Positions 5,801-23,937 of a stretch of 64,000 nt of DNA are shown in pieces; the first letter of the stretch is position 1; the number at the start of each line of letters is the position of its first letter. The translations under genes and the position numbers were made by a program. The notes under the pieces were generated by a model, which was given only the letters and a program-made list of their open reading frames with translations, did no database searches and was not told where the DNA came from. This DNA is from Planctomycetota bacterium (GTDB lineage: Bacteria; Planctomycetota; B15-G4; JADJEK01), in NCBI GenBank assembly GCA_044225365.1, contig JBGAIQ010000015.1, positions 5,346 to 69,345 on the forward strand. Reading direction: 5' to 3'.

Positions 5801-6834
5801 GCCGGCTGCGCTTCAGCCCCGACGAGCGGTTCCTCTCTGGAGTCGATCTGAAGTCGGAGACGGTGATCGCGGTCGATCTCGAGACTGGAGTCGAGATCGG
5901 CAGGGTCCGCTCCGCGGGCTTCACCGCGCAGGTAGCGACCGGAGGCAAGCTCCTTGCGATCGCGGCGGGCGGTTCGGGACAGGTCACCGCGCACTCGCTC
6001 CCCGACGGGGCCTTGCTCCACACGATCGATCACAGTGGCTTCGCGTTCGATGTCGCGTTCGCGGGCGACGGCGCGCGCCTCGCGACCGTGGCGAACGACA
6101 CGACCGCCCTGATCTTCGACTCTTCCACTTGGGTTCGACTCGCCCGCACCACGATCCCAACCGGGGATCTCGGCCACTGCGATTTCTCTCCGGATGGTCG
6201 CTACGCAATGGTCAAGATCGACGACCACTTGGTGCTCCTCGACGGCAAGGAAGGGTCGGTGGTGGCGCGGTGGAATCGACCCGGCCTGGTGGATGCGCGG
6301 TTCTCCGCGGATTCGAATTGGCTGCGTTGGATGATGCTGGATGGGAGCATCCTCGACGTCCCGCTCGATCCACTCGGCTACGCGCGGTCGCTCGCACCGC
6401 GCGTGATGACGACCGAGGAGATGACCCGCTACGAGGTCGGTACGAAGGACGACATCGCGGCGCGACGGCTCGAACTCGACGCAGCGCCCGATTCCGCGCG
6501 CAATCTGATCGTGCGCGGGGAAGCTGCGATCACGACCCGCGAGATCGAGCGCGGATTGGAACTCCTCGAGCGCGCGGCGAGGATTCGCAGCCGACTGCCC
6601 GTGCGATTCCACCTCGCACGCGCCTGCGGGTTGACGCTACGAATGGCGACCTGGCCGGACACGTCAGAAGGGCGAGCGAATCGATCTCGTGATCGCGACG
6701 CCGCACTCGCGGACCTCGTGGCCGTGCGCGACGCCGGCTACCCGCCTGCGAGTTTCCAGGCCACGGAGGAACTCGCGGGACTCCGCGGCGAACCCGGCGC
6801 CGATTGGGTGTTCGAAGTGCCGACGGAACGGTGA
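2839..6834 (+). CDS. Ser/Thr protein kinase with TM segment, WD40-like beta-propellers and C-terminal TPR-like helices
   Basis: Kinase motifs IGEGGFGKV, VALKIIK, HRDIKPSN, DFGIAK, GTPQYMSPEQ and DIYSLG; hydrophobic segment LAIVASLGAIFVSLVVGLGIALW; repeated WD-like FSPDG units. Confidence 0.93.
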   Translation: MRSDRWQRIREMFDRVIDVAPAARAEWLATNLGAEPEVKAEVEALLRAHSDTELRSTNPSEPRPATTSSLEGPGTVIGRYRIVSEIGEGGFGKVYLAQQQEPIQRNVALKIIKPGMDTAQVIARFEAERQTLALMDHDAIAKVYDAGATAAGRPYFVMELVNGIPITRFCDDERLDTTQRIELFVHVCHAIQHAHQKGVVHRDIKPSNLLVAMHDGRPVPKVIDFGIAKAMQPRAEGQLAFTAEQQIVGTPQYMSPEQAGSGDRDIDTRSDIYSLGVVLYELLTGDTPFQMRSKGPASLDVLLRQICEVDPQTPSSRLATRGAETNQVAAQRRTDQRRLRERLRGDLDWIVMKALAKDRTRRYATANGLAMDLSRHLRGLPVEAGPPSVGYRVQKFVRRNLAIVASLGAIFVSLVVGLGIALWQYEDARKNATLAADNAAAANRNAAMAETRERETKAALQREKEALNVANGHRLSAQAIALANEDPTLALLLAIEGAKLASGPDVQAALYAALEHHRETAILPGHDAASQVLDLTADDRFALSSDDSGLILISDLHEVRAKRIYELPEPSAKAGILAAAFASDPRRAFGLTGDGMLYEFAESGDCVAIRSTPESLSCAAFVAKNDLVLAGGADGVVRSIPLDAKAEVAAIARHASAVVALATSADGGFVASLDTGMTLIVTDRSTGTAIGHVALASGDLDPSVYNAATWHFPSLQFDAKAHRLLARARNGQLTMLEIPSCRVEWQNDPGERVDQRVDQRINGYAALAPSGEFVVTGDFTRPSPRERAEGIFVLDAATGRDVRQLATSILGARLDIVFDTNGTTVVVAGNRGTDAWMLDTGARIGPIPSPAHRFGGMRFTHDGDRVIAGSSGGDLVAFRIAAYPGSKRWMKDQFERRAWMQRVDGNGRRVMMTQRATPGVDGPDDSTWVFDAATGDAIAEIVPPRAGRCEYEISRSGRFAVAMVEGQRGELFDLDRGSRRSLDVSNLSRLRFSPDERFLSGVDLKSETVIAVDLETGVEIGRVRSAGFTAQVATGGKLLAIAAGGSGQVTAHSLPDGALLHTIDHSGFAFDVAFAGDGARLATVANDTTALIFDSSTWVRLARTTIPTGDLGHCDFSPDGRYAMVKIDDHLVLLDGKEGSVVARWNRPGLVDARFSADSNWLRWMMLDGSILDVPLDPLGYARSLAPRVMTTEEMTRYEVGTKDDIAARRLELDAAPDSARNLIVRGEAAITTREIERGLELLERAARIRSRLPVRFHLARACGLTLRMATWPDTSEGRANRSRDRDAALADLVAVRDAGYPPASFQATEELAGLRGEPGADWVFEVPTER

Positions 6835-10285: not shown

Positions 10286-13200
10286 CTATCGCGCCTCGAA
10301 GTGAACGTGGACGTTCGAACTCCCCGCCTCGACCTCCACCGGCTTGCTCGACGTCAGGATCTCCGAGCCGTTTCCTTGCGGCGTGCGGCGCTCGAGGGAG
10401 AGGGTGAACTTGCCGGGAGGCAGATGTTCGCAGCGGAGGCTCGGGGATTTGGGATCGACCGGGAGCGTGCGATAGACCGCGTAGTGCGAATCGTAGGAGT
10501 CGATGACGATGGAGCAGGTTTCGTCGAGTGCGCCCAACTCGGAGGCGACGTCGTAGGTGGCGGTGAGCGTCACGCCCGGGTCGAGATCGATGGTGAGATT
10601 TGCGTCGGACCCGTCGCCGCGGAGGTTCACCGTTGCGTGACCGTAGCCGTGGAGAGGGTGGGTCGCGTAGATGTCGTGTTCGCCGATCTGCCCGAGCGAC
10701 AGCTCGGCTTCGCCGCTGTCCTTCGTCATTCCCGGAATGGCGGACACCGAATTCTGCGCGGTCGAATTCGGACCGCCCTGCGACGCATGCCTGGCAATCG
10801 CGCGCACGGCAGCGCCTGCGATCGGCGCACTAGCTTGCACCACGCGAACCACCAGCGGATGCGATTCGAACTCGAAGTCGAGGGCGCGTTGCTCGCCGGG
10901 TCCGAGTTCGACCTGTTTGCGACTGCGCGGCGTCAGCATCGTTCCTTCCGGCATGTCCACTCCGGCATACACCTCGACCGTGTACGCACCGGGCGGCAGA
11001 TTCTCCGCGCGATAGGTGCCGTCGCTCTCGATCTTCGTGAATCGGCGTAGCGGATTCGGCGAGATCTGCAGGATCGCCGTCTTCATCGGCGCACCGCCTT
11101 CGGTGATCCTGCCGACGAGCGTCGCATTGGTGGCGGCGCCGCTCGGCGCGATCTCGATCGTGATCTCCGTGGTCCTTCCGGCCGCGACCTCGAAGTTGCC
11201 CCGCGCGATGAGTTCGGGCTCGAGCTTGCGGAAATCGGTCGCCGCGCGCGCGGAGAGCGTCGTGAGGTCCTGCGTGAGCAGGTCGGAGACGATCTCGTAC
11301 TCGTAGTTGCCGGGCGCGAGGCCGGAGGCATGCACGTCGCCCGCGGCGTCGCTCGTGACGAAGCGCGGCAGTTCGAGGGAATCGTCCAACTTGCCGGCGC
11401 GCACTCCCGGGAAGATCATCAGTGTGAAGCGCTTCGTGGGAGCGACGCCGGCCGTACGCAGGTGCCCGATGAACGCGCTCGGCGGCTCGAGGACGACGTC
11501 GACGCTCGCCGCGCCGGGTTCGACCTGGATCTCGCTCGCTCCGTACCTTGGATGATCGACGCGCACGCGCATCGCCTGGTCCCCCGGGAGCGCGATGCCG
11601 TCGAGGATGGCGATTCCGCGCACATCGGATCTGGCGAGGGCGAGCGCGGACGGGACCCGAACTCCGAACACGGCCGCCGGGCTCTTCCTCGCGTCGGTCG
11701 TCACCATCGCGGCGACGCTCGCGTGTTCGACGGCGCTCTGCGCGAGCGACTCGCGCACGTGGACCTCGAGGCGCCGGCCCGACGGAATCTCCACGCTCGT
11801 TGCGCCGCCGTCGGCGCTCACGGCGAACGAGAACGAGTACGGACCGAGCGTGGGGTGGTCGGGATCGATCGCTCGCAGCAGTCCGTCGTAGTCTCCGGCG
11901 GCGAGGCCGGTGATCGTGAAGACACCCGGACGATCGCAGCGTAGTGATTTCGAGACGTCGACGAGCGGCGACTGGAACTCGATCACGGAACTCGGCGGGC
12001 GGGCCGGTGAGGCGCGCAGTTCGATCGCGTTCACGAGATGGCCGTCAGCGCGCGTCACGTGGAGTTCGTGCGAGATCGTGCCGGCGAGCTGGATCTCCAC
12101 ATCGTCCGCGACCGATTCGACGATCGTCCAGCTCGCGAGCGATTCGCTGCGCGCGGCGAAGTAGGTCCGGCCCTCCTCCGGAAGTGCGCGCAGGGTGAAG
12201 CGACCGGCGTCATCCGTCGCCGCTTCGTTCGACGTCAGCGCGAACGTCCCGATCCCGCAATCGGTTCCTCCGATCACGATCGCCCGCGCGAGTGGTTTCC
12301 CCTGACCGTCGAGCACGCGGCCGGAAACGGTGCGTCCGGGCGCGATCGCAAGGGTGCCGAAGTCTTCCTTCTTCGTCGCGCCCGCGCCGCGCTTGCCCGT
12401 CGCGGTCGGCCCGAAGGCCGTGGGTGCGAATCGATCGTGGTCGACGAGGAGCGTGACGTTCCCGCCCGCGATCCCGGTCAGCTCGAAACGGCCGTCGCCG
12501 TCCGTCTTCGTCGTGGGGAACGGAAGTCGATCGATGACGCGCTGCGCCCACCGCGGCAGCTCGATCACGCGTTGCCCGTCCGCGCGCAACGAGAGAACGC
12601 GCGATTTCGTCGTGAGCCGTTCGACGCCGAGGCGAGCAATTGGAGCCGGCAGGCACGCGGCGCGAACGCGGGCGTCCGCGACCGGCTTGCCGTCGTCGTC
12701 GACGATCTTCCCCGTGATCCCATGTACCGGACCGAGAACGACGTCGCCGAGGTCCGTCGTCTCGCTCGCGGCGAGCGGAAGGTCGACCATTCGCAACGTC
12801 GCACGCTTGCCGCCGAGATCGATGCCGAGCGCGTGCAGACCTCGCGGGAAGACACCGTCGAATTGGAAGCGACCGCCGCCGTCCGTCTTGGTCTCGCCGA
12901 CGAAGGGGTCGATCGTGGCGTCGCGGAACGCGCCGACGAGATCGTTGATCAGGGACGGAGAGTCGAATTCGACGAGCGCGAGGGTGGTGTTCGCCACCGG
13001 GGAGCCGTCGGCTTCGAGGAGGCGTCCGCGCAGGCCCGCGAGCGCGCGGGTGTACGAAGCCGGCGCGGCCACGCCTGGACTCGTCGGAGGGGAAGGCTCG
13101 GCTGCCACGAGCGAGCGTTCGGGTTCGCTGCGCAAGGGCGTCGGTGCGACGCTCGGTGATTCGGACGCGACGAGCGGCGCGCGCGCGGCATTCGAAGGTG

Positions 13201-14011
13201 CGGCGCCGCCGTCGGACGGATCGGCACCCGTGAAGACGTAGCCGACGGCGGCGAGCGCGATCACGGCGAGCGACAGCAGGATCTTCTTCGACATGAGCCA
13301 TGCTCCGGTCTTCGAGAGCCCCGATGAAGTTGGGGAAAGCGTGGAAAGCGGTGGAAGCGAGTGGCCCGATGTCGCATGACCGAGGACTCGCGCTCGCAGG
13401 CTCGAGAGCACGGCGGCCCGACTCGTCCGCGAGAGCGCGAACAGCGCGAAGGTCGCGGTGAGGCCGCGCGGCAGCGAGCGACGCAGCAAGGAGAGCGCGC
13501 GCTGCAATCGCATTCGCACCGCGCCCGGCGGTCGTCCGATCGACTTCGCGACGTCACTCGCACGTTCGCCGCGCAGGAGCCGCGGAACGACCACTTCGCG
13601 GTAGCTCGCGGGCAAGTGGTCGATCGCGTGGGTGACCGAGGTCCAGACTTCCCGTTCGATGGCGAGGTCGCTCGCGGAGGCTGCGTCGTGCTGCATTGGC
13701 CACGGGTGTGCGCTCATCGCGTTCGAGGACGAAGCGCGCGCGGCGCGGCGGCGCGCGACGAAGACGTGATTCGCGAGGATCCCCGCGAGCCACGGTTCGA
13801 GCGGTCGCGTCGCGTCGAACGTGTCGCGCGATTCGATCGCGGTGAGGAACGTGGCTTGGACGAAGTCCTCGGGCGAATCGACGTCGCGAGCGAGCACGCG
13901 CGCGAGGCGCATGAGATCGGGCGCAACCGTATCGAACACCCGCGCGAGCGCGGCGACGTCGCCGTGCTTGCGGAACTGCTCGAACTCGGCTCTTGGATCG
14001 CTCTCTCGCAT
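10286..14011 (-). CDS. ECF sigma factor fused to a TM segment and extracytoplasmic carboxypeptidase-regulatory-like repeats
   Basis: Sigma2 (EDFVQATFLTAIE...FDATRPLEPWLAGILAN) and sigma4 (LPASYREVV...VAKSIGRPPGAVRMRLQRA); TM ILLSLAVIALAAVGYVF; repeated GxxxDxxGxPV...TDxxGRF units. Confidence 0.9.
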   Translation of the reverse strand: MRESDPRAEFEQFRKHGDVAALARVFDTVAPDLMRLARVLARDVDSPEDFVQATFLTAIESRDTFDATRPLEPWLAGILANHVFVARRRAARASSSNAMSAHPWPMQHDAASASDLAIEREVWTSVTHAIDHLPASYREVVVPRLLRGERASDVAKSIGRPPGAVRMRLQRALSLLRRSLPRGLTATFALFALSRTSRAAVLSSLRARVLGHATSGHSLPPLSTLSPTSSGLSKTGAWLMSKKILLSLAVIALAAVGYVFTGADPSDGGAAPSNAARAPLVASESPSVAPTPLRSEPERSLVAAEPSPPTSPGVAAPASYTRALAGLRGRLLEADGSPVANTTLALVEFDSPSLINDLVGAFRDATIDPFVGETKTDGGGRFQFDGVFPRGLHALGIDLGGKRATLRMVDLPLAASETTDLGDVVLGPVHGITGKIVDDDGKPVADARVRAACLPAPIARLGVERLTTKSRVLSLRADGQRVIELPRWAQRVIDRLPFPTTKTDGDGRFELTGIAGGNVTLLVDHDRFAPTAFGPTATGKRGAGATKKEDFGTLAIAPGRTVSGRVLDGQGKPLARAIVIGGTDCGIGTFALTSNEAATDDAGRFTLRALPEEGRTYFAARSESLASWTIVESVADDVEIQLAGTISHELHVTRADGHLVNAIELRASPARPPSSVIEFQSPLVDVSKSLRCDRPGVFTITGLAAGDYDGLLRAIDPDHPTLGPYSFSFAVSADGGATSVEIPSGRRLEVHVRESLAQSAVEHASVAAMVTTDARKSPAAVFGVRVPSALALARSDVRGIAILDGIALPGDQAMRVRVDHPRYGASEIQVEPGAASVDVVLEPPSAFIGHLRTAGVAPTKRFTLMIFPGVRAGKLDDSLELPRFVTSDAAGDVHASGLAPGNYEYEIVSDLLTQDLTTLSARAATDFRKLEPELIARGNFEVAAGRTTEITIEIAPSGAATNATLVGRITEGGAPMKTAILQISPNPLRRFTKIESDGTYRAENLPPGAYTVEVYAGVDMPEGTMLTPRSRKQVELGPGEQRALDFEFESHPLVVRVVQASAPIAGAAVRAIARHASQGGPNSTAQNSVSAIPGMTKDSGEAELSLGQIGEHDIYATHPLHGYGHATVNLRGDGSDANLTIDLDPGVTLTATYDVASELGALDETCSIVIDSYDSHYAVYRTLPVDPKSPSLRCEHLPPGKFTLSLERRTPQGNGSEILTSSKPVEVEAGSSNVHVHFEAR

Positions 14012-14089
14012 GGTCGTGGGATATGGACGGAAGTCGCGCGAGTGTCACTCGGATTCTCGCGAAATCCCATCGCCCCGCGAGCCCTGATC

Positions 14090-14301
14090 GGACCGCCGCG
14101 CTCCAGCGCGGCATCCATCCCATGGCCGGGCAGAGCCCGGCGGTCCGGTTCCTTGCCGGCGAAGCGTGCTTGGACCGTCGCGCTCCAGCGCGGCATCCAT
14201 CCCATGGCCGGGCAGAGCCCGGCGGTCCGGTTCATTGCCGGCGAAGCGTGCTTGGACCGCCGCGCTCCAGCGCGGCATCCATCCCATGGCCGGGCGAAGC
14301 G
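14090..14301. repeat. REP/BIME-like array, 82-bp period (about 2.5 units)
   Basis: GGACCGYCGCGCTCCAGCGCGGC at 14090, 14172 and 14254, the first two followed by an inverted variant GCCGGGCAGAGCCCGGCGGTCC. Confidence 0.9.
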
Positions 14302-14303
14302 TC

Positions 14304-14473
14304 ATCATGCTCCCGGGACTCTCGACCCACGCGAAGGGCGAACTCACCTTCTCCTCGCCGTGGCCGTGCGGCGTCCCCTCCGGCATCACGATCGAATTCC
14401 AGGCGTTCATCACCGATCCTGCCGCGCAGTTCGGCGTCGGCTCGTCGAACGGCATCAGCGCCACGACGCCTCG
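14304..14473 (+). pseudogene. Relic 3' end of a gene carrying the shared C-terminal domain
   Basis: Reads IMLPGLSTHAKGELTFSSPWPCGVPSGITIEFQAFITDPAAQFGVGSSNGISATTP, then CGA where a TGA would be expected. No upstream gene body. Confidence 0.65.
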
Positions 14474-14581
14474 AGCGCACCTTCGGTTCAGCCGTCGACC
14501 TCCTCACTCCGATAGAGAAATGAGCGCGCGCGTCGTGGTCGGCGGGCGTCGCACGATTCCGGTTCGGAGTGAGGTTTCGTC

Positions 14582-15493
14582 ATGTCGTCGAGAATTCCGT
14601 TCGGTCGTTCTTCACGCTGCCTGTCGTGGGTCCTCGTCGGTGCCGCGCTGCTCGCGTGGGGCGCGCCCGCGTTGCGCGCGGGACAGGCGGCGGGCGCCAC
14701 GGACTCGGCGCAGGTCGCCGTCAAGGCGCTGCTCGCCGCACAGGACCAGGCCCTCTCGGCCTTCAAGAAGGCGACGGATACCGAGGCCGACGCCGTCCGC
14801 ACGCTGATCAAGGGCACCGAACAGGGCCTCGCCTTCGGCGCTGACGGCCCGGCCGCGGTCGGCGACCTGTTCGACGAACTGTCGGCGTTCCAGGCGCTGA
14901 TGCAGACCCACATCGAGGATGCCTGCAAGGCGCAGGCGGACGCGGCGAAGGAAGCGCTCGCGGCGCTCGCGCCGGCGACCGAGGGCCAGTATCCGGCCGC
15001 CTTCTATCCGGGGGACGGCACCCCGACCGACAAGTTCGAGCGCGGGATCGACGAGTACGCCGCGAAGACGTACTCGAAGCTGCATGAGAGGCTCGAGAAG
15101 ACCGTGAAGAAGTTCGAGGCGAAGGGCGTCCACGTCGCATTGCGACTCGATCCGCCGCGGCGGCATCGATTCGAATGGAACAGCCAAACGACGGACTTCT
15201 ACGTCATCCCGGCAGCGAGCATCGATCTCGTCGTCGCGTCGAGCGTGGAGGGGATTGCCGGAGACGGCAAGCTGCGCGTGGCGGGCGCCGCGGGGGTCGC
15301 CAATCCGTTCTTCACGTCCGTCAGCATCGATGCGGTGCAGCTCGCCCCGAACACGAAGCAGCAGACCGTCGTGCCCGCGAACAACCGCTACATCGCGGAC
15401 TTCCAAGGCGCGAGCTTCGACGAGGGAACCTGGCTGATTGGGGTCAGTTATCCCGGGACCGTGCCAGCCGACGAGACGATCGGGATCCGCTAG
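14582..15493 (+). CDS. Secreted hypothetical protein
   Basis: GAGG upstream; signal peptide LSWVLVGAALLAWGAPALRA; helical N-half and beta-rich C-half. Confidence 0.8.
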   Translation: MSSRIPFGRSSRCLSWVLVGAALLAWGAPALRAGQAAGATDSAQVAVKALLAAQDQALSAFKKATDTEADAVRTLIKGTEQGLAFGADGPAAVGDLFDELSAFQALMQTHIEDACKAQADAAKEALAALAPATEGQYPAAFYPGDGTPTDKFERGIDEYAAKTYSKLHERLEKTVKKFEAKGVHVALRLDPPRRHRFEWNSQTTDFYVIPAASIDLVVASSVEGIAGDGKLRVAGAAGVANPFFTSVSIDAVQLAPNTKQQTVVPANNRYIADFQGASFDEGTWLIGVSYPGTVPADETIGIR

Positions 15494-15682
15494 CCGCGGC
15501 GTTCCACGGGCGCGGCTTCGCCCGCCGATCCGCCTGGGATTTCGTCCAATCGCTTGACGAAGGCCGCGGCGCGACAATACATTGCGCGCGTGTTCGGAGG
15601 GTGGCGCCTTCGGCGCGACGAAGAAGCGCGGCGCCATGGCATTCGTCCCTGCGGCGTGGAATTCGGAGGACTCGCAGCAGCG

Positions 15683-16399
15683 ATGCGCGAGCGGCTTCCC
15701 AAGGCAGGCAGAAGAGATGACGATGAAGAACCCAGCGGGTTCGACATCGCGCATCACCTTTTGAAGTCCGTCAAGAACCGCGGCGATCTGGACGAGCGGC
15801 TGAAGGCGGCGGGAGCCGATCCCGAGGCGATCGCCGAGATCTTGATCGAGCATGAACCTTGGATCGACGCGAATCGTCTACTCCATGCGTTGTTCTACTT
15901 GCTCCATCCCCTCGTCGATCGACTGACGCGGGACCATCTCTTGCGCGAGTACTACCTCCTCGACCCGCTCCTCGTCTCGGAGAGCGCGATGGGACGCCTC
16001 TACGGCGACGTCCTCGCCGGGCGGCGCCGCACGCCTCTGCGGGATTGGATCCACAACGTCATCGAGCGATCCACGCGCATCGCCGCGGAGGATCCCGAAC
16101 TCTCGCTCTATCACCCTGAGCCCGGCTCGAATTCGCGCACCCTGATGCTGAGCTACATGTGCGAGGTCGTGAACGGGATGCCGCACGACGTGAGGCGGAT
16201 CGCGTACATGATGTTCGTCGACGGGAAGAAGTACCGACAGATTTCCGAACAATTGGGCCTTCCGCTCGAGCGCTGTGAGATGATCGTTGCACAGCTCACG
16301 ATGGCCGCCGCACGCAAGTACTCCGAAGAGCTGGCGCGAAGGAAAGAGAAGACCGTCGACGATGAGGCCGCAGAAGAGGCTGGAGGCGAACATGGCTGA
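15683..16399 (+). CDS. Divergent ECF-sigma-like protein (sigma4-type HTH)
   Basis: GGAGGA before the ATG. C-terminal VNGMPHDVRRIAYMMFVDGKKYRQISEQLGLPLERCEMIV is sigma70 region 4-like; ESAMGRLY...PLRDWIHNVIERS is weakly sigma2-like. Confidence 0.7.
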   Translation: MRERLPKAGRRDDDEEPSGFDIAHHLLKSVKNRGDLDERLKAAGADPEAIAEILIEHEPWIDANRLLHALFYLLHPLVDRLTRDHLLREYYLLDPLLVSESAMGRLYGDVLAGRRRTPLRDWIHNVIERSTRIAAEDPELSLYHPEPGSNSRTLMLSYMCEVVNGMPHDVRRIAYMMFVDGKKYRQISEQLGLPLERCEMIVAQLTMAAARKYSEELARRKEKTVDDEAAEEAGGEHG

Positions 16400-17408
16400 G
16401 AAGAAGCCGATGTCGAGCTTCTTGCTCGACGCCCCGTTCGATCCCAAGGATCTGGTGCGCGACCTTCCGGAACTCCTCGCGGGCCCGGAGCCGGTCCTCG
16501 ACCACCCGATCGCGCGCCGCATGCTCGTCTCCGACCCCACCTGCCGCGCGGGCATCCAAGCCGTCGCCGAGATGCTCCTCGCCGTCCGCGGCGGCTCCGA
16601 GGCCGTCTCCTCCCTCCGCCGCACCCGCCCTCCCCGCGTCCCCAGGTCGGTGGAGGTGGCGCGGAAGTACCTGAAGGAGGAGTTGTATGGGGTACTCCTT
16701 CGATGGATTGCACCCATTCGACTGGCGAGTGTGGCCGAGAGCTCAAAAGTAGGTCCAGGCTTCTCAATGGACTTCGACCCCGAGCACCTCAAGCGGATGA
16801 CCCGCCAACTCGAACGCGCACGGTCTCGAGGCGGACTCGGATCCGCGTATCAGACGTCGATTGCGCATATTCATGATGCGTTTACGGATTCCGCTTTCGA
16901 TGATGCTGCGCGAGCAATCACTGCTGGCGGGACGCTGTTTCCTAATCGTTCGCTGACTGAACTCAATCGCCTCATTCTTCAGTATCGTTCCAATCGTGGC
17001 GCCTCGGTGGGCGCGTGGCTTGGACTTGCGAAATCGGCTGACGATTCAGAGGTTGTCGGGCATGCCCTGACGTGGGCTGCGGTCACTGCGAGTGACCACG
17101 GCGATCCTCGTCTGGCTCTCGATCTCGATTGCGCTATTGTTGAGCGCTACGAGTCAAAATGGGTCGCTTACTACAACGGATGTTATCATGCTGCGGAAGC
17201 GCGGCGATTTCATGACCTTGCGAGATTCAGCGCTCTGCTCGCAAGTCGCGTTGATGCATCGCTCGCCCCGGACGACATTCAGCGCCCACTTCGAGATCAG
17301 TTCCTTCGTGATGCGGATTTCTGGCGGCAACAGATGAGGACTCAATACGAGTCGATCGAATTGATTTGGAAGGCAGCGACCGGAGAAGCTGTGGGAGATT
17401 TTCCGTGA
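16392..17408 (+). CDS. Hypothetical alpha-helical protein with TPR-like C-terminal half
   Basis: Overlaps the upstream stop and has GGAGG SD. HALTWAAVTASDHGDPRLALDLDCAIVERYESKWVAYYNGCYHA resembles TPR helix pairs. Confidence 0.7.
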   Translation: MAEKKPMSSFLLDAPFDPKDLVRDLPELLAGPEPVLDHPIARRMLVSDPTCRAGIQAVAEMLLAVRGGSEAVSSLRRTRPPRVPRSVEVARKYLKEELYGVLLRWIAPIRLASVAESSKVGPGFSMDFDPEHLKRMTRQLERARSRGGLGSAYQTSIAHIHDAFTDSAFDDAARAITAGGTLFPNRSLTELNRLILQYRSNRGASVGAWLGLAKSADDSEVVGHALTWAAVTASDHGDPRLALDLDCAIVERYESKWVAYYNGCYHAAEARRFHDLARFSALLASRVDASLAPDDIQRPLRDQFLRDADFWRQQMRTQYESIELIWKAATGEAVGDFP

Positions 17409-17626
17409 ACACGAGCGGTAGAACGTCTGGGGCGTCCCGCTCGGCTTGGCGGGCGATTGTATGTTCTGTTTCGGTTCTGTTTCTGATTCCGATACAGCCC
17501 GCAAAAGGAGCGCTACGGGCTGCAGTGAGTGTCTCGCCGACGAACCGAGGTGGTTCTGGGGATCAGCCCGTCGGCCCATCTGGACCTGGGATCGGAACTC
17601 CGCCAACGAAGAAGCCAGTTCCGTGA
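17405..17626 (+). CDS. Small exported peptide A (73 aa)
   Basis: GTG start overlaps the upstream TGA (GTGA); hydrophobic core followed by tail RGGSGDQPVGPSGPGIGTPPTKKPVP; paralogous to the next ORF. Confidence 0.7.
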   Translation: MNTSGRTSGASRSAWRAIVCSVSVLFLIPIQPAKGALRAAVSVSPTNRGGSGDQPVGPSGPGIGTPPTKKPVP

Positions 17627-17647
17627 GGAGCATCAGGAGACTCGCGC

Positions 17648-18022
17648 ATGACTAAGAATTGGTATCCGGAGGATCCCTCGCGTGGCGAGAGGTCAGGCAC
17701 GATCCAACACGTCGGCGTGCGAGTCGGTGAGTCGGGCGGACTGGAAGTGGATCCGGGTGTGCTCGCAGCTACTTCCGAAGGGAATCGGCGTGCGAGGCGG
17801 AACTTGAACTCGCCAGTTGTCGTTTCACCTCGGCGTTCGTGGGTGGCGGTTTCAATGTCGGTTCTCCTTGGCATCGTCTTTGGCATCGGCGAATCGAAGG
17901 GTATGAGTTTTCCGAGTCCTCCTGGGTCGCGCAGGATCGAGTTACGAGGCGGTGCGGGAGATCTGCCTTCCGATCCGGTGTCGCCATCCTCAGTGCCGAC
18001 TACAAAATCACCTGTGCCCTGA
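17648..18022 (+). CDS. Small exported peptide B (124 aa)
   Basis: AGGAG SD; hydrophobic core WVAVSMSVLLGIVFGI followed by tail RGGAGDLPSDPVSPSSVPTTKSPVP. Confidence 0.7.
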   Translation: MTKNWYPEDPSRGERSGTIQHVGVRVGESGGLEVDPGVLAATSEGNRRARRNLNSPVVVSPRRSWVAVSMSVLLGIVFGIGESKGMSFPSPPGSRRIELRGGAGDLPSDPVSPSSVPTTKSPVP

Positions 18023-18080
18023 TTCATGTTCATGGTTCATTGCAGTTGATGGCCCCAGAGGCCGCTAGGGCATTCAGCAT

Positions 18081-21000
18081 ATGAGGTTTCACCGGGTTGT
18101 TGGTGCCAGCTTGGCACTCCTTGCAGTTGCCATAGCTCTAGTGTTTTTCAGATTTGTCGGCGACGGGGGTCGGAGTGAGAAGAAGAGTGTGTCCGGGGAG
18201 GTCTCTCCGAGCGAGATTTCGAAACGCGAGTCCGTAGGTGGCAGAATTGACTCTGCTGTTCGCGACGAGCTCGGGCATACGACCATTCACATAACCAAAG
18301 ATGGCGCGGCGGTCGCCGGGGCCGAGGTTGCTATCTGTGGTGTTTCTGAATATCGAGACCCTTGGGCGCCCCTCGATCGAAAGTCGATCATACGTGCGGC
18401 AACTGATCTCGATGGAAATTACGTGCTGGATCGCGAGACTCGTTTTCCTGTGATCGTTGGTGTTCAAGCCTCACCGAATGCGGCGGCGTGGAAGCGATTG
18501 GAGACTGGCGGTTCGATCGTGGAAATAGGTTTATCCGACGAGTATGAGTTGAAGGGTCGGGTGACGGATGCGGCTGGTAAGTCGATAGGCGGCGCCTCGA
18601 TCGTTGCTTCATTCGATGCATACAATTCTTACTATGCCAGCGAGTCGGCTGATGTGTTTATATCCGCGCAACTATTCGACGACAGAGCGGAGACGGATAG
18701 TGATGGGGCGTTCTTGCTAGGGAGATTGGGCGGGTCTCTGCTGAAAGTCGAGGCCGCCCATCCTCGTTTCGGTCGCGTCGTAGTAGAAGGGCTCAGCATT
18801 CCGAGAGAGGATCCATTGCAGCTCGTTCTGGGAGCCGGCACGGCGCGGTGCAGAGGTCGTGTGAGGCTGACGACAACGGGTCAGCCCGTTGCTTCAGTGC
18901 GCGTAGTAGGGTACGGCTTCGAATACGGAGTAGAGAAAGCCCGCTCTCCGGCTGCATACAGTGAGAAGGATGGGTCGTTTGCGCTCGATGGATTGGCGGC
19001 GGGGTGGTCCGACAATCGCGTGACGTTTGAGAAGCCTGGACTCGGAATGACAGTTCGCGACATCGATGTGGTGCGCGATGGCGACCTAATCGAACTCGAT
19101 GTCGCGATGAGCCCTACGCTTGATTTTCTTGGATTCGTCACGGATCCGCTAGGAAATCCGCTCTCTCGTGCACAGTTGATGGCTATGGATCCTGCTTATT
19201 CCATGGTCCTTGATATTGCTCAAACCGATGCTTCTGGGAAATTCGTAATCCACACGATTGCTGGGGATGAACCATTCGTCTTGAAAGTGACGAACAAGGA
19301 CTTCTCGCCCTTGTTTAGGGTGATACGGCGCGGGTGGCCTGAACCACACACCTATGTCCTAAGCCCAGAACAGCCACTTCTTGGGCGACTTGTGACTGAT
19401 TATTACCCGCTCGAGAAGCCGCGCGTTCGTGCAATCGCCGAGGGCGCTAGATATGGGAGGGTGATAACGAAATGGGCCGAAGTGGATCCTGCAACTGGTA
19501 CCTTTGAATTTGCAGGACTCGCCGCTGGAACTTACGTTCTCGATGCTTTTGCGGAGGGTTTTGCGCGTTCGCGGATTGACGGGATCGCGCTAGACGTCAT
19601 TCGTCCCCGTGAAGCTGTAGAGATTGTGATGAAGAAGGGTTCCTCGTTGCGCGGACGGGTTGTGCAACGCGGATCCGGAAAGCCAATCGGGGGCGCGACG
19701 ATCTACTTGGGGGACCCGAGTCCCGGAGAAGATCCGACCTACAATCATTTCGACGAAGCATTTACCTCAAATGCGGACGGAACGTTCTCAATCGAGGGTG
19801 TTTCCAGCGACTCGAAGAGCGGCGTTGTGGTAAGTGCTTCTGGTTACGGTACCCGCCACTTCTTACTCAACATCGGAGCGGCCGAAGGTGTCGCGAATAG
19901 GGTGTTCGAATTAGATCTTGGGGCAAGCGTCAAGATTACGGCTACCCGGCCTGACGGCTCGAAGTCGCGCGAGTTCGTTGGATCAGTGAATCCCCCGGAC
20001 GGGTATTTCTCAAGCCAATACGTGATCGGCGGAGAGTTGGTTCTGGATGGACTTCAAGCCGGACATGTCGCGGCTCGAGTTGACCTATGGGATCCCAGTC
20101 CTCCTGAGTATCGCGGTCTTAGCCTCGAAGAATCACTAGACCTAGCTCCCGGAGAGCACCGAGACGTAAATATCTCTTTTCACCTCGGTGCTACAATACG
20201 CGGTCATGTCAATGGTCCCGAGCGGCTCCTTGAGCCGGGATCTATAGCAGTTCATATCTCGCCGCCCGAGAACGATCCTGCATATCGCAGCTATGGCTCC
20301 CTTCGCCTTACCGGCAGCGACTACGTCGCCTACGGGGTTCGCCCCGGTCCGGTGAAGGTGCTCGTCTACCCCGCCATCCCCGGCTCCTTCGTGACCGCCG
20401 AGAAGCGGCTCACGGTCGAGGAAGGGAAGGAATACACCGTCGATATCGAGATCGGCGATGCGGTGCAAACTGGGGCGGTGCTCGATGCGAACGGGGCGGC
20501 GGTCGTCGAGGCGTGGGTGTCGATGCGGCGGACGAAGGAGGCGTTGAAGAATGCGGGAAACGGAGAGGAGACCGACTCGTGGCACTCCGATCTCTCGAAG
20601 AGCGATGGTGCGTATCGGATCGAGGGGCTGGGCCCGGGAGAGCTCGAGTTGCGCGTGCGGGCGCGAGGATACGGCCGCGCGCGCGGCAGGTTCCTGCCCA
20701 TCGTGAGATCGGACGGGTCGTTCGAGCCGCATGAGATTCGCCTCGCGCGAGAGGGCGTCGTGAAGGTGAAGGTGCAGGATCGCGGCGGGGAGGACGTCGC
20801 GGGCGCTCGCGTCGAGCTTGCCCCCGCGGACGTGCCGGACGATCCCTATGTGCCCGAGGCGCAGGAGGGCGTGCGGCGCGGGGAGGCTCGATTCCTCGGC
20901 GTGGGCGTCGGTGTGAACGTCCTGCGGGTCTCCGCCGAGGGCTTCGTGCCCTATGAGAGCGAGACGAGCGTGGCGGCAGGGGATGTCTTCGAGGCAACGG

Positions 21001-21299
21001 TCGTGCTGCGGCGTCCGGCGGCACTCGAGTTCATCCTGCGCGATGGCAATGGAGCGCCGCTCGAGGGCGCGGCCCCCAGCTTGGTCGACGTGACGACGGG
21101 GTACTCGCTTCTCGATCTCGCGCGTCACGGCCTCATCTCGGCCGCGACCCTGGATGCGAAGAGCGACAAGACGGGCGCACTTCGCTACGAGGGGCTCCCG
21201 GAAGGCGAGTACCGCATCGTGTTCGGGGGGATCGAAGCGAAGGGCACGGCCGGTCCCGGGGGAAGCGAGAAGCCGATCACGTTGATGCTCGGGAAGTAA
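18081..21299 (+). CDS. Membrane-anchored protein with multiple carboxypeptidase-regulatory-like (prealbumin/Cna-B-like) repeats
   Basis: N-terminal TM; repeated GRVTDAAGKSIGGASI, TDSDGAF, TDASGKF and SNADGTFSI units. Confidence 0.88.
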   Translation: MRFHRVVGASLALLAVAIALVFFRFVGDGGRSEKKSVSGEVSPSEISKRESVGGRIDSAVRDELGHTTIHITKDGAAVAGAEVAICGVSEYRDPWAPLDRKSIIRAATDLDGNYVLDRETRFPVIVGVQASPNAAAWKRLETGGSIVEIGLSDEYELKGRVTDAAGKSIGGASIVASFDAYNSYYASESADVFISAQLFDDRAETDSDGAFLLGRLGGSLLKVEAAHPRFGRVVVEGLSIPREDPLQLVLGAGTARCRGRVRLTTTGQPVASVRVVGYGFEYGVEKARSPAAYSEKDGSFALDGLAAGWSDNRVTFEKPGLGMTVRDIDVVRDGDLIELDVAMSPTLDFLGFVTDPLGNPLSRAQLMAMDPAYSMVLDIAQTDASGKFVIHTIAGDEPFVLKVTNKDFSPLFRVIRRGWPEPHTYVLSPEQPLLGRLVTDYYPLEKPRVRAIAEGARYGRVITKWAEVDPATGTFEFAGLAAGTYVLDAFAEGFARSRIDGIALDVIRPREAVEIVMKKGSSLRGRVVQRGSGKPIGGATIYLGDPSPGEDPTYNHFDEAFTSNADGTFSIEGVSSDSKSGVVVSASGYGTRHFLLNIGAAEGVANRVFELDLGASVKITATRPDGSKSREFVGSVNPPDGYFSSQYVIGGELVLDGLQAGHVAARVDLWDPSPPEYRGLSLEESLDLAPGEHRDVNISFHLGATIRGHVNGPERLLEPGSIAVHISPPENDPAYRSYGSLRLTGSDYVAYGVRPGPVKVLVYPAIPGSFVTAEKRLTVEEGKEYTVDIEIGDAVQTGAVLDANGAAVVEAWVSMRRTKEALKNAGNGEETDSWHSDLSKSDGAYRIEGLGPGELELRVRARGYGRARGRFLPIVRSDGSFEPHEIRLAREGVVKVKVQDRGGEDVAGARVELAPADVPDDPYVPEAQEGVRRGEARFLGVGVGVNVLRVSAEGFVPYESETSVAAGDVFEATVVLRRPAALEFILRDGNGAPLEGAAPSLVDVTTGYSLLDLARHGLISAATLDAKSDKTGALRYEGLPEGEYRIVFGGIEAKGTAGPGGSEKPITLMLGK

Positions 21300-21459
21300 A
21301 GCGCGGGCTTCCCCCCGAAAAGCGGCTGTCGAACGCGCGGCCGCTCGTGTAGCGTCTTCCGCGTTTGCCCGCCACCGGCATCCGAAGGGGTGCGGCGGCC
21401 AGTCTCAGCAAACCAGTTCGCGTCGCTGCGAATCGCACTGTGCGGAATAAGAGATCCTC

Positions 21460-21984
21460 ATGATCAAGAAGCTCTTCGCCCTCCTGTTGATCGCGATCGT
21501 CGTCGTGCTCGGCATCGCCATGACCAAGCCCGATCACGTCGAAGTGGTGCGCGAAGCCCGCATCAAGGCGAAGCCGGAGAAGATCTACCCGCTGATCGAG
21601 GACTTCCACGAATGGGCGAAGTGGTCGCCGTGGGAGAAGCTCGACCCGGCGATGAAGCGGACGTTCGGCGGGCCGCAGAAGGGCGTCGGGGCGACGTATG
21701 AGTGGGAGGGGAACAAGGACGTCGGCAAGGGGAAGATGGAGCTGACGGCGGCGAAGCCCTCGTCGCAGATCGATGTGAATCTCGATTTCATCGAGCCGTT
21801 CGAGGGTCACGACAAGGTGGTGTTCACGCTCACGCCGGAGGGGGAAGAGACGGTCGTGAAGTGGTCGATGGGTGGGCCGGCGAACTTCATGTCGAAGGTG
21901 ATGTGCGTGTTCGTCGACATGGACAAGATGGTGGGAGGGGATTTCGAGAAGGGGCTCGCGAACTTGAAGGCGGCGACGGAGTAG
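21460..21984 (+). CDS. SRPBCC/START (polyketide cyclase-like) family protein
   Basis: IKAKPEKIYPLIEDFHEWAKWSPW, GVGATYEWEGNKDVGKG and DFEKGLANLK; N-terminal TM. Confidence 0.9.
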   Translation: MIKKLFALLLIAIVVVLGIAMTKPDHVEVVREARIKAKPEKIYPLIEDFHEWAKWSPWEKLDPAMKRTFGGPQKGVGATYEWEGNKDVGKGKMELTAAKPSSQIDVNLDFIEPFEGHDKVVFTLTPEGEETVVKWSMGGPANFMSKVMCVFVDMDKMVGGDFEKGLANLKAATE

Positions 21985-21990
21985 GAAGGG

Positions 21991-22157
21991 GCATGCCGGG
22001 CTGGAGCCCGGCGGTCCGATCCGCATGCCGGGCTGGAGCCCGGCGGTCCGATCTAGCAGCCCGACGCTTCCACCCGGCAGCCCGGCCGGTCCCACTCAAC
22101 CGCCCGACGCTCCCACCCGGCAGCCCGGCGGTCCCACCCGCCAGCCCGGCGGTCCCA
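21991..22157. repeat. REP-like repeats (same family as 14090 and 40453) plus degenerate partial copies
   Basis: GCATGCCGGGCTGGAGCCCGGCGGTCCGATC twice at 32-bp period, then three CAGCCCGGC(C)GGTCCCA half copies; lies between convergent genes. Confidence 0.85.
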
Positions 22158-22167
22158 TGGCGCTCCA

Positions 22168-23937
22168 TCAGGAGTGCGTAGGGGGAGCGGCGTCGTGCTT
22201 GCGGTGCCGGAGCTGAGCCCACGCGGCGAGCAGGCCGACGGTGATCCAGAAGCCGAGTGAGCCCGTCACGCAGAGTTCGAAGGTGCGGTCGGGGCGATCG
22301 TGCTCCCACTTCGCCTGCTCGATCGCGACTTCGCGGGCGCGCTCCTCGGCGGCGCGGGCGCGTTCCTTCGCCTCCGCGATCTTCGCCGCGGTCGCGGCGC
22401 GATCGCGGGCGATCTTCTCCTTGATCCGCGTCAACTCCGAACGCTCGAGCTCGCGCATCGACGCGCGGCCCTTGGCGTCCAGCTTGGAGCCGATGAGGGA
22501 CGATCCGTCGCCGCTCTTCTCCAGTTCGTCGTCGAAGCGAATCCGCCGATCGATCTCGTCGCGGAGCGCATCGAGCTTGGCGATCCGTTCCTCGTCGGTC
22601 GCGTCCTGCGCGCGGACCTTCAACAACTCCCGCTCGAACGAGGCGCCGGTGGAGCTGAGCGTGGGCTGGAAGATCTCCATCTCCTGCTCGAACGTGGCGG
22701 GGACGGGTTCCGGCTCGGCGGGCTTCGCGACCGGCTCATCGGACAGGCTCGCGATCACGTGGAAGCGCGAGAAGACGCCGCGGAACGTGACCTCCTGGAC
22801 CACGACCGTCGTCGAGAAGAGGCCGAGGCCGATGCACAGGGCGAGCAAAGGCCAGTACTCCTCGAGGCGGGGCACGCGGCGAAAGGCGATGCCCGCCGCC
22901 AGGAGGACGACGGCGGGGACGAGGAACCACGCGTTGGTCTTGCCAAGGAGCGTGAGCGCGACGAGGAGCGTGCCCGTCAGGAACGCGACGAGCGACCACG
23001 TCGCTGGAATCGCGGACGGGCGGCGCAGGAGCGGCGTGATCCCGCCGAGCACCGCGCCGGGCAGACCGAAGACGAGCGCGGCGAGCGCAAGGAGCATGAA
23101 GAGGTTCGAGAGATCGCGAAGGTAGGGGACGACGAAGAAGACGAGCGCGAGCACGCCGAGCCAGCGCTTCTTCACGGCGAGGGCGACGACGATTCCGATC
23201 GATACGAGCGGGGCGAGGATCGTCACGCCCGTCAGTCCGTCGAGCCAGACGACGATCCGCGCGGGAAGCGCGAGAGGCCAGAACCCGGTCGCGACCAGCG
23301 AGTTCATGACGCCGCGCCACGTCGCGTGATCGAAGATCATCTGCAGCAGGATGCCGACCGCCCGCGCCACGATCAGGAAGGCGAGCACGATCGTCGGCGC
23401 GAGCAAGAGGCCGGATCCCGCGCCCGCGAAGGCCGACACGCCGGGCGACAGCGGCGCTCCGGTCTCGTCCTCCGTGACGAGATGGGAGAGCGCGACCGCG
23501 AGACCGACGCCGAGCACGACCCAGAGGGCGGCGAGCGCGATGAGGTGGCCCGTCGCACCCGCGCTCTGCGCGAGCTCCGGGCCGAGCACAGCCGCGGGCA
23601 ACTCGTGAGCGATCTCCTTCCACACCTCCGGCAGCGCGTGCCACGCGGCGACGAAGAGCTCGAACGTGGCGAGCGTGAGGATCGTGACGATCATCCGCGG
23701 CGGCGTGAGTTCGTGGGGCTCGATCTCGCCGTGGCGAATCAGATCGCGCGTCATCTCGATGATGCACGATACGACCGCGGCGACGAGGAGCGACGAGACG
23801 AAGACCCACGGCAGGTGCTCGCCTTCGTGTTGGAGGAGGACGAAGACGGCGAAGCCGCTAAGCGTTCCGAACGCGCCTAGCGCGCCCGCGAGGACCCTCG
23901 CTCGCCTCGGCGTCGTCGACCAGGTGTTGCTCGTCAT
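22168..23937 (-). CDS. Polytopic membrane protein with coiled-coil insertion, function unknown
   Basis: More than ten hydrophobic segments, then a charged coiled-coil region and a final TM helix. Confidence 0.8.
   Translation of the reverse strand: MTSNTWSTTPRRARVLAGALGAFGTLSGFAVFVLLQHEGEHLPWVFVSSLLVAAVVSCIIEMTRDLIRHGEIEPHELTPPRMIVTILTLATFELFVAAWHALPEVWKEIAHELPAAVLGPELAQSAGATGHLIALAALWVVLGVGLAVALSHLVTEDETGAPLSPGVSAFAGAGSGLLLAPTIVLAFLIVARAVGILLQMIFDHATWRGVMNSLVATGFWPLALPARIVVWLDGLTGVTILAPLVSIGIVVALAVKKRWLGVLALVFFVVPYLRDLSNLFMLLALAALVFGLPGAVLGGITPLLRRPSAIPATWSLVAFLTGTLLVALTLLGKTNAWFLVPAVVLLAAGIAFRRVPRLEEYWPLLALCIGLGLFSTTVVVQEVTFRGVFSRFHVIASLSDEPVAKPAEPEPVPATFEQEMEIFQPTLSSTGASFERELLKVRAQDATDEERIAKLDALRDEIDRRIRFDDELEKSGDGSSLIGSKLDAKGRASMRELERSELTRIKEKIARDRAATAAKIAEAKERARAAEERAREVAIEQAKWEHDRPDRTFELCVTGSLGFWITVGLLAAWAQLRHRKHDAAPPTHS

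Follow-up and report, generated by a model that had tools for sequence, protein, structure and literature searches.

Pairs of an extracytoplasmic function (ECF) sigma factor and its anti-sigma factor are a major signalling device, and the signal input of soluble anti-sigma factors is known for few of them. A five-gene cassette from a planctomycete raises the question of what such an input might be. It occupies positions 15683–21299 of a 64,000-nt stretch of contig JBGAIQ010000015.1 (the whole analysed stretch is hereafter called the window), and its genes, which we denote g1 to g5, encode a sigma-like regulator, a helical repeat protein, two small exported peptides and a large surface repeat protein. 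An initial annotation, made from the letters alone, proposed that they form a peptide-controlled sigma/anti-sigma switch. Here, we examine this cassette by structure prediction, profile comparison and analysis of related loci. We find that g1 and g2 very probably constitute a switch of an ECF sigma factor and a soluble anti-sigma factor, the two proteins binding each other. The initial interpretation is borne out in part. A lineage-specific operon around this pair, with the co-encoded peptide as the most likely input, is the reading that we prefer, and we hold it with slightly less than even confidence.

Organization of the cassette

The five genes share one orientation and have overlapping or close junctions, as initially described and as the open reading frame (ORF) list and the sequence bear out. 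The first, g1 (15683–16399, + strand), encodes the ECF-type sigma factor of 238 amino acids (aa) and overlaps by 8 nt with g2 (16392–17408, +; 338 aa). The stop codon of g2 lies within the tetranucleotide GTGA (17405–17408), which also supplies the GTG start codon of g3 (17405–17626, +; 73 aa). The initial annotation placed the start of g4 at ATG 17648, which in the ORF list gives a 124-aa product (17648–18022) after a gap of 21 nt. Its view of g4 as a second small exported peptide precursor holds, but this start does not: TTG 17804 is the most likely one (17804–18022, +; 72 aa), because the 72-aa product aligns with that of g3 from the first residue. The TTG codon is preceded by GAGG, and the 52-aa N-terminal stretch read from ATG 17648 is absent from all homologues. 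The last gene, g5 (18081–21299, +; 1072 aa), follows after 58 nt. The same gene order is found in 13 of the 14 related loci with downstream DNA, which places the arrangement far beyond chance.

A consensus scan marks a sigma-70-type promoter-like site, TTGACG-N18-TACATT, roughly 100 nt upstream of g1 (15554–15583, +); taken alone, this site is not above chance. We compared 15 upstream regions, comprising those of the window, 13 related cassettes and an orphan g1 paralogue. The strict pattern TTGACn-N16-18-TnnnAT stands 84–114 nt upstream of g1 in eight of them, against 0.008 expected from shuffles, and near variants occur in most of the others, the window included. By its sequence, the operon promoter looks housekeeping-type.

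The predicted fold of g1

An AlphaFold2 (AF2) model of g1, built with 16 homologues, has a mean predicted local distance difference test score (pLDDT) of 90.9. The top ten Foldseek matches of this model are all ECF sigma factors, aligned over 145–189 columns with a probability of 1.00 each, and the matches include sigmaE (1or7), AlgU, SigW and SigH. The initial annotation had recognized a sigma-4-like region; the model reproduces this and extends it to the full ECF fold. Judged by its modelled fold, g1 is an ECF sigma factor, preceded by an N-terminal extension of about 60 aa with three extra helices.

Sequence profiles alone recover this relationship weakly. Pfam gives g1 a sub-threshold Sigma70_r4_2 match (19.3 bits against a 25.7-bit cut-off) and no Sigma70_r2 match, and the score against TIGR02937 is 19.8 with a cut-off of 42.9. 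Among the 16 members of the g1 family, weak r4_2 matches occur in four and weak r2 matches in three. Compared by hhalign with the Pfam-positive sigma factor of one of the distant trios described below, the family aligns with a probability of 79% (E 1.6e-5). The same genome also carries the orphan g1 paralogue (L027, G000:C78:100215-100868, − strand), with 34% identity (E 1.5e-38); it has no g2, peptide gene or g5 behind it, and the next gene is convergent.

g2 as a putative soluble anti-sigma factor with a TPR domain

The AF2 model of g2 (47 homologues, pLDDT 84) is all-helical, and two parts can be distinguished within it. The N-terminal domain (16392–16736, +; residues 1–115) consists of four predicted helices (residues 18–30, 39–47, 49–75 and 85–115), resembles anti-sigma domains and is without zinc ligands; it is the more conserved of the two. 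The C-terminal part forms a tetratricopeptide repeat (TPR) solenoid (16764–17408, +; about residues 125–338) and is the most divergent part of the cassette. We found no transmembrane segment in g2, the maximum 19-residue hydropathy being 1.08. Neither g1 nor g2 reaches the cut-off of any model in Pfam or NCBIfam, and g2 has no family assignment in either database.

Several methods bear on the TPR assignment. Searched against the sequences of the PDB, the g2 family profile finds a consensus TPR protein at 1e-36, and PEX5 and Cdc16 over positions 168–311. The Foldseek and VIA-align matches of the model are likewise TPR proteins, with Z-scores of 9–12.8 over residues 88–338, and Pfam TPR models match few family members, weakly. 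The initial description of g2 as helical and TPR-like thus agrees with the family profile and with both structure searches.

The hit list of the structure search is filled by the TPR part and barely represents the N-terminal domain, for which the evidence comes from profile–profile comparison. A profile of this domain, which carries the conserved motif LPELLAGxEPVL, aligns by hhalign with the zf-HC2 N-termini of nine anti-sigma factors that this genome encodes (probability 60%, E 8.5e-5), and the whole g2 family aligns over 254 columns with a distant planctomycete protein consisting of zf-HC2 and TPR domains (probability 92%, E 5e-7). Both alignments are in register, placing LPELLAGxEP on LDGEL and LxxDPxxR on HxxxCxxC. 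The zinc motif HxxxCxxC itself is not found in the g2 family consensus, whose aligned positions read LxxDPxxR, and g2 is therefore not a member of the zinc-binding anti-sigma (ZAS) subclass. Non-zinc class I anti-sigma domains exist. None of the 47 family members matches a Pfam anti-sigma model. From the two in-register alignments, we read g2 as the fusion of a TPR domain with an anti-sigma-like domain that lacks zinc ligands.

Two small peptides with a Gly/Pro core

The product of g3 has a signal-peptide-like N-terminus, in which a K/R-rich stretch precedes a hydrophobic 12-mer scoring 2.89, followed by the core RGGSGDQPVGPSGPG and the tail TKKPVP. That of g4 similarly begins with basic residues and a hydrophobic stretch and continues with RGGAGDLPSDPVSPS as its core and TKSPVP as its tail. 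At the C-terminus the pattern [KR]xP is semi-conserved, and a single residue distinguishes the tails of g3 and g4. With 27 of 65 aligned residues identical and signal-like N-termini in both, g3 and g4 are the exported-looking paralogues that the initial annotation took them for; only the core is alike at the DNA level, so the duplication is old. One contig of a relative agrees with the window as far as the g3 stop at 17624, beyond which the two sequences are unlike. We found no copies of the peptide family in this genome beyond g3 and g4, and no Pfam or NCBIfam family that matches g3.

The g3 product aligns with 12 small ORFs that stand at the same position in related loci. By hydropathy and charge, the sole basis of this assignment, all 14 of the 14 aligned small ORFs have two to four N-terminal K/R residues and a hydrophobic 12-mer scoring above 2.0.

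Related loci and their distribution

Searching 60 relatives with g2 yielded 15 related g2 loci, which we examined together with the DNA around them; downstream DNA is available for 14. In 14 of the 15, g1 lies immediately upstream of g2 (tblastn), and the fifteenth is cut by a contig end. The initial annotation had proposed to ask whether a small signal-peptide ORF regularly follows gene 2 in homologous loci. Such an ORF is present in 12 of 14: it encodes 57–82 aa that begin like a signal peptide and include the motif GG[GS]-x(2-4)-P-x2-P-x-GG. With the g2 stop codon it shares 4 nt (ATGA or GTGA) in the window and in ten of these 12 loci; in another of them, the overlap is 11 nt. Orthologues of g5 occur in 13 of the 14 loci; they are about 1060 aa long and align over residues ~90–1070 at about 25% identity. 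Two loci, L022 (genome G010) and L023 (G005), have two tandem g5-like genes of ~1060 aa each. No enzyme genes were seen in the related loci examined.

A g5-less subtype is represented by two loci, L046 and L021, both of which continue with a homologous protein of 151 and 166 aa. The first of these, from a metagenome, consists of g1, g2 and a leaderless 44-aa ORF (5963–6097) that keeps GGGHPTSPAGGG and overlaps the g2 stop; signal peptide and g5 are both missing. In L021, the C-terminus of g2 (near 3950–4003) ends in the tail GGGSGSAAAGPAGAGS, which is possibly a Gly/Pro motif and equally well a chance product of low complexity.

The relatives found in the named collection are labelled as Planctomycetota and as metagenome-assembled genomes of uncultured Phycisphaeraceae, which agrees with the probable planctomycete of the initial annotation. 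Within the family of the window, nine of 11 genomes have matches that cover the g2 N-terminal domain or most of the protein, and a tenth has a weak, TPR-only match. In other families of the order, one of 30 genomes matches (E <= 1e-5), in the TPR region only. An even sample of 400 further Planctomycetota genomes gave the same picture, with matches in six of seven genomes of the same family and in three of the other 393, the latter restricted to the TPR part. Among 1.84 billion representative proteins, 41 match at E <= 1e-30 and about 60 are full-length members of the g2 family, weaker matches being generic TPR proteins; the gene contexts analysed here cover a minority of these ~60 representatives. 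By these sequence searches, the g2 family is found only in one family of Planctomycetota. A profile scan with a five-sequence alignment identified four loci in genome contigs and two in metagenome contigs. The best 150 of the 1.84 billion representatives include no fusion of sigma factor with g2, or of g2 with peptide, that contains the g2 N-terminal domain. Cassette copies per genome range from one, in this genome, to five in G002, with three in G001.

A variable core within the operon

Base composition changes abruptly inside g2. The GC content at third codon positions (GC3) is 0.90–0.94 over the first 300 nt of g2 and 0.46–0.58 over the rest; it remains at 0.51–0.61 through g3, g4 and the first 2100 nt of g5 and then returns to 0.84. 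The resulting low-GC3 mosaic segment (16690–20180) takes in g3 and g4, the TPR part of g2 before them and the initial ~2100 nt of g5 after them. The GC3 of the g2 TPR part lies below that of the N-terminal domain in all 15 of 15 loci. We rejected an assembly chimera as the cause of the break, which is bridged with 0 differences by contigs from two runs, X1 (15500–19443) and X2 (16389–17593), of one sample. A comparison across samples, consisting of covered pieces and contig ends only, adds relatives' contigs from two other studies: these are 95–97% identical over 15500–16688 and 90–94% over 20283–21400, those that reach the left boundary stop at 16655–16688, and the only central pieces found are 86–88% identical. 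The middle of the cassette lacks cover in runs X3 and X5, which we do not count in the argument. The contigs compared are of DNA; a search for RNA over the stretch found none.

Nucleotide identity between related cassettes follows the same boundaries. L022 and L023 share 0.82–0.88 over the g2 N-terminal domain and the last 300 nt of g1 (0.71–0.76 in mid-g1) and 0.48–0.60 over the TPR domain and small ORF. For L024 and L025 the values are 0.96–0.98 over g1 and the g2 N-terminal domain (0.89 in one bin) and 0.59–0.66 over the TPR domain and small ORF; for L020 and L017 they are 0.94–0.98 in g1, 0.76–0.82 in the g2 N-terminal domain and 0.60–0.71 over the TPR domain and small ORF. Each of the three cassette pairs compared thus loses identity across the TPR domain and small ORF, and g5 is intermediate at ~0.6–0.9. 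Mean pairwise protein identities are 0.32 for g1, 0.40 for g2 residues 1–100, 0.21 for g2 residues 101–338, 0.28 for the peptide and 0.28 for g5. The cytoplasmic TPR domain and the exported peptide are a variable core between more conserved parts. Such a layout is familiar from receptor–ligand specificity loci; hitch-hiking within a recombination block may also be the source of the variable core. In a mirror-tree comparison of 11 cassettes, peptide identity correlates alike with that of g1 and of both parts of g2 (r 0.36–0.48).

Distant trios in other planctomycete families

Comparable gene trios occur in three other planctomycete families (L058 in G192, L059 in G327 and L060 in G341), each comprising a sigma factor, a protein with zf-HC2 and TPR domains and a protein with a signal peptide. 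The zf-HC2 model scores above its cut-off in G327 and at 22.1 bits, against a cut-off of 22.2, in G192; in G341 it gives no match and the domain was read by eye. Each of the three proteins has at least one Pfam TPR model above cut-off. The sigma genes have Sigma70_r2 and r4_2 above cut-off and an N-terminal extension. The third genes encode signal-peptide proteins of 149–216 aa without a Pfam family. The genes of these trios overlap or abut in two of three cases and stand ~40 nt apart in G192.

By hmmsearch and BLASTP, no similarity was found of the trios' third genes to the small peptides, and such longer exported proteins fit a role as cargo. From the distant trios it follows that the window cassette is a diverged branch of a wider planctomycete trio of sigma factor, soluble TPR anti-sigma factor and exported product. 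This trio of sigma factor, zf-HC2 plus TPR protein and exported product may be a widespread, undescribed soluble anti-sigma architecture.

g5 and the flanking DNA

The g5 product is an envelope protein with one N-terminal membrane anchor, its single hydrophobic segment, and transthyretin-like CarboxypepD_reg repeats (Pfam PF13620, 8e-51, seven stretches). A role for g5 as the anti-sigma factor was considered and rejected, as only ~2–18 residues precede the membrane anchor, too short to hold a sigma factor. The initial annotation had called g5 a transmembrane repeat protein, which stands, and had likened its repeats to those fused to the ECF sigma factor encoded at 10286; this likeness exists at the level of the Pfam domain only, and direct BLASTP found no specific kinship between g5 and that protein (E 0.02 at best). 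The latter (10286–14011, −; 1241 aa) combines a complete ECF sigma factor, in which Sigma70_r2 and r4_2 both exceed their cut-offs, with a hydrophobic segment and CarboxypepD_reg repeats. In a single polypeptide, it would seem to be a membrane-tethered sigma factor whose repeat domain is extracytoplasmic.

On one side, the cassette is flanked by a protein of 303 aa whose N-terminus resembles a signal peptide (14582–15493, +) and, on the other side, by an SRPBCC protein (21460–21984) and a multi-pass membrane protein of 589 aa whose C-terminal part is charged and coiled (22168–23937, −). The 303-aa and 589-aa proteins match no Pfam family. With these neighbours, the initial statement that no modifying enzyme or transporter is adjacent proves correct.

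Tandem arrays with a palindromic core lie at 14074–14319 and 21973–22166 (units of 82 nt; 32, 21 and 43 nt). They stand inverted on either side of 14.1–22.1 kb, and within the window they occur only at these intergenic sites. We considered inverted repeats around 14086–22053 as ends of a mobile element and rejected this, the 13-mer core being present 200 times on 57 contigs of the genome; because of this count, the arrays belong to a dispersed family of elements resembling repetitive extragenic palindromic (REP) sequences. In each of the runs X1 and X2, one contig joins 15530 to 20810, skipping 5279 nt. With a shorter side of 21 letters, this joint is probably repeat noise, and we did not adopt it.

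Relation to known systems

The closest characterized kinds of system are the pairs of ECF sigma factors and class I anti-sigma factors, such as SigW/RsiW, sigmaE/RseA and SigR/RsrA. As in these, g1 has a two-domain sigma fold, the partner gene g2 follows immediately and overlaps, and the four predicted helices at the N-terminus of g2 can be aligned in register with zf-HC2 domains. RsrA is soluble, as g2 is predicted to be. In contrast to these pairs, the zinc ligands of g2 are replaced, it has no transmembrane segment and a TPR solenoid comes right after the anti-sigma domain, and the system further differs in the N-terminal extension of g1 and in its housekeeping-type operon promoter. Two other arrangements bring TPR repeats together with ECF sigma factors. 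In Myxococcus xanthus, DdvS is held by DdvA, an anti-sigma factor with a small zinc-type domain and TPR repeats, the latter regarded by the authors as a protein-sensing input in the part of that report which treats the pair (PMC11506125). Unlike g2, which is soluble, has 338 residues and lacks CHAT, DdvA is described there as transmembrane with a periplasmic TPR–CHAT module of ~900 residues, and the same part of the report links it to no co-encoded peptide (PMC11506125). ECF42-type sigma factors, according to the relevant portion of PMC7826278, have a C-terminal TPR extension fused to the sigma factor, whereas in the cassette the TPR domain is on a separate protein, g2, behind the anti-sigma-like domain. 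That portion recognizes soluble anti-sigma factors in ten ECF groups and considers that others probably exist (PMC7826278).

The arrangement also looks like peptide signalling, by analogy with the RRNPP pairs of Firmicutes. Rap/Phr, PlcR/PapR and AimR/AimP share with it a TPR receptor, an adjacent small ORF with a Sec signal and several divergent cassettes per genome. We compared the cassette with the five-criterion RRNPP signature as it is worded in part of PMC10075063, and the g2/peptide pair has every one of the five features. The propeptides, which the signature places at 10–100 aa, have 73 aa (g3), 72 aa (g4) and 57–82 aa in the homologues; a Sec-type signal, by hydropathy and charge only, is seen in 14 of 14 small ORFs; the receptor, expected to have 250–500 aa with TPRs, is g2 with 338 aa and TPRs assigned from profile and fold matches; and the two genes are adjacent, with a 4-nt overlap in the window and in ten of the 12 full-length small ORFs from related loci. 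The RRNPP models of Pfam and NCBIfam do not match g2, and we found no sequence relationship to any RRNPP family; because of this, and because the host belongs to Planctomycetota, we do not file the cassette as an RRNPP member. By analogy, it may work like an RRNPP pair. Rap acts by sequestering a protein rather than by binding DNA, and g2 would act likewise. PlcR is among the structural matches of g2 (Z 10.7), at a level that is common for helical repeats. Further differences from RRNPP systems are the planctomycete host, the anti-sigma output domain, the central Gly/Pro motif and the presence of a large envelope protein gene in the cassette. In the library searched, literature joining anti-sigma factors with RRNPP apparently consists only of reviews on other topics, and among the papers listed for Planctomycetes together with quorum sensing, signalling peptide and sigma factor, none is relevant.

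A possible peptide input and its alternatives

We propose a mechanism in which the N-terminal four-helix domain of g2 would hold the sigma factor g1 and the TPR domain would be the input domain. The operon would be read from the housekeeping-type promoter with its genes translationally coupled, and would make one peptide (two in the window) that is Sec-exported, carries the Gly/Pro motif and is ~35–45 residues long after cleavage, as well as g5, a membrane-anchored protein of beta-sandwich repeats that would serve the envelope. Binding of the co-encoded peptide, or of its precursor, to the matching TPR domain would shift the sigma/anti-sigma equilibrium; peptide and g2 would encounter each other either before export or after re-uptake. 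We favour the peptide as the input because a TPR fold is combined with translational coupling of g2 to the peptide gene, because the motif-bearing ORF persists without g5 while TPR domain and peptide are jointly hypervariable, and because the core is extended and of PxxP type, as suggested by known TPR ligands. For the binding of peptide to TPR domain taken by itself, our confidence is tentative and clearly below even. A predicted complex of g1, g2 and mature g3 (residues 36–73), in which the peptide was scored, has an ipSAE of 0.01 against a mark of 0.32, which speaks neither for nor against binding. That g2 is a peptide-gated anti-sigma factor, releasing or capturing the ECF sigma factor when its TPR domain binds the cognate Gly/Pro peptide, we consider rather unlikely.

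Several observations weigh against a peptide input, and some of them equally against a classical pheromone. Of the two partners, g2 is cytoplasmic and the peptide has a signal for export; in a diderm host, this leaves the time before export, or uptake afterwards, for an encounter. Uptake may be possible, as the genome has two genes for OppA-family binding proteins; no transporter or protease gene is adjacent to the cassette. The mature peptide is long (~35–45 aa), unlike the short C-terminal RRNPP pheromones, and its conserved motif is central rather than C-terminal, which also counts against a classical pheromone. So do the longer third-gene products of the distant trios and the locus L018b, where a decayed small ORF of 27 aa stands beside intact g1, g2 and g5; in L021, the small ORF is absent altogether. 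With shared history removed, the correlation between peptide and TPR divergence falls to a partial r of 0.22 over 55 non-independent pairs, too weak to use. The peptide genes have ratios of non-synonymous to synonymous polymorphism (pN/pS) of 0.54–0.71 at saturated pS, so purifying selection outside the motif is weak. Finally, an operon promoter of housekeeping appearance gives no sign of the autoregulation that ECF systems typically have.

A serious alternative, to which we give a substantial chance although well under an even one, is that the peptide is cargo only. The TPR domain would then sense an unrelated cytoplasmic cue, and peptide and g5 would be co-expressed envelope products without peptide feedback, such as part of a surface layer or adhesin plus its small partner; hypervariability would be surface-antigen diversification that carries neighbouring DNA along. 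The prominence of g5 suits this explanation, as it is a conserved member (13 of 14 cassettes) and fast-evolving (mean identity 0.28), and so do the distant trios, which encode a folded exported protein instead of a peptide, the toleration of a decayed peptide gene in one cassette and the lack of adjacent genes for uptake or processing. It accounts less well for the position of the identity trough, which is deepest over the cytoplasmic TPR domain and the peptide and not over g5, for the coupling of the peptide gene to the g2 stop codon and not to g5, and for the persistence of the motif-bearing small ORF where g5 is absent.

Classical RRNPP-type extracellular quorum sensing, as the initial annotation proposed, would be a special case of the peptide-input reading, with secretion, trimming outside the cell, density-dependent accumulation, uptake by a permease, binding to g2 and release or capture of the sigma factor. 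The agreement with all five parts of the formal signature speaks for it, along with the several divergent, pherotype-like cassettes per genome (five in G002, three in G001), the semi-conserved [KR]xP tails that differ in one residue between g3 and g4, and the OppA-family genes. We nevertheless judge it improbable: the host lies outside the phylum to which the part of PMC10075063 on these systems assigns them and has a diderm envelope, the conserved motif is central and not C-terminal, the receptor has an anti-sigma output domain in place of a helix-turn-helix (HTH) or Rap-type one, and a leaderless variant exists (L046). Far less probable still is a locus for a ribosomally synthesized and post-translationally modified peptide (RiPP) or a bacteriocin-like product, with the small ORFs encoding precursors and with a role for g5 or g2 in maturation or immunity. 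Two small paralogous ORFs with a conserved core beside large genes of no assigned function would suit it, and one family member weakly matches the NCBIfam model of the daptide RiPP recognition element (RRE; E 0.066), a match that is most likely noise. Yet the loci examined have no modifying enzyme, protease or ABC exporter in or beside the cassette, the small ORFs start with ordinary Sec-type signal peptides and not with RiPP leaders, and g1 and g2 are regulators by fold.

Implications

In this cassette, a soluble anti-sigma-like protein carries a TPR domain, a classical peptide-binding fold, and is translationally coupled to an exported peptide; TPR domain and peptide diversify together. Should the peptide not be the ligand, the locus would still represent an undescribed architecture of soluble anti-sigma factor and TPR domain that recurs across Planctomycetota with an exported partner; the group of g1 may be listed in the supplementary tables of PMC7826278. 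If g2 is indeed gated by its peptide, the divergent cassettes of a genome would be orthogonal, pherotype-like channels, and the system would be the first case of RRNPP-like logic outside Firmicutes and the first acting on a sigma factor. If the peptide is the ligand, the cassettes would provide naturally orthogonal triplets of sigma factor, anti-sigma factor and peptide for synthetic circuits, and genetically encoded peptide signalling as known from Firmicutes would reach a diderm phylum and the control of sigma factors.

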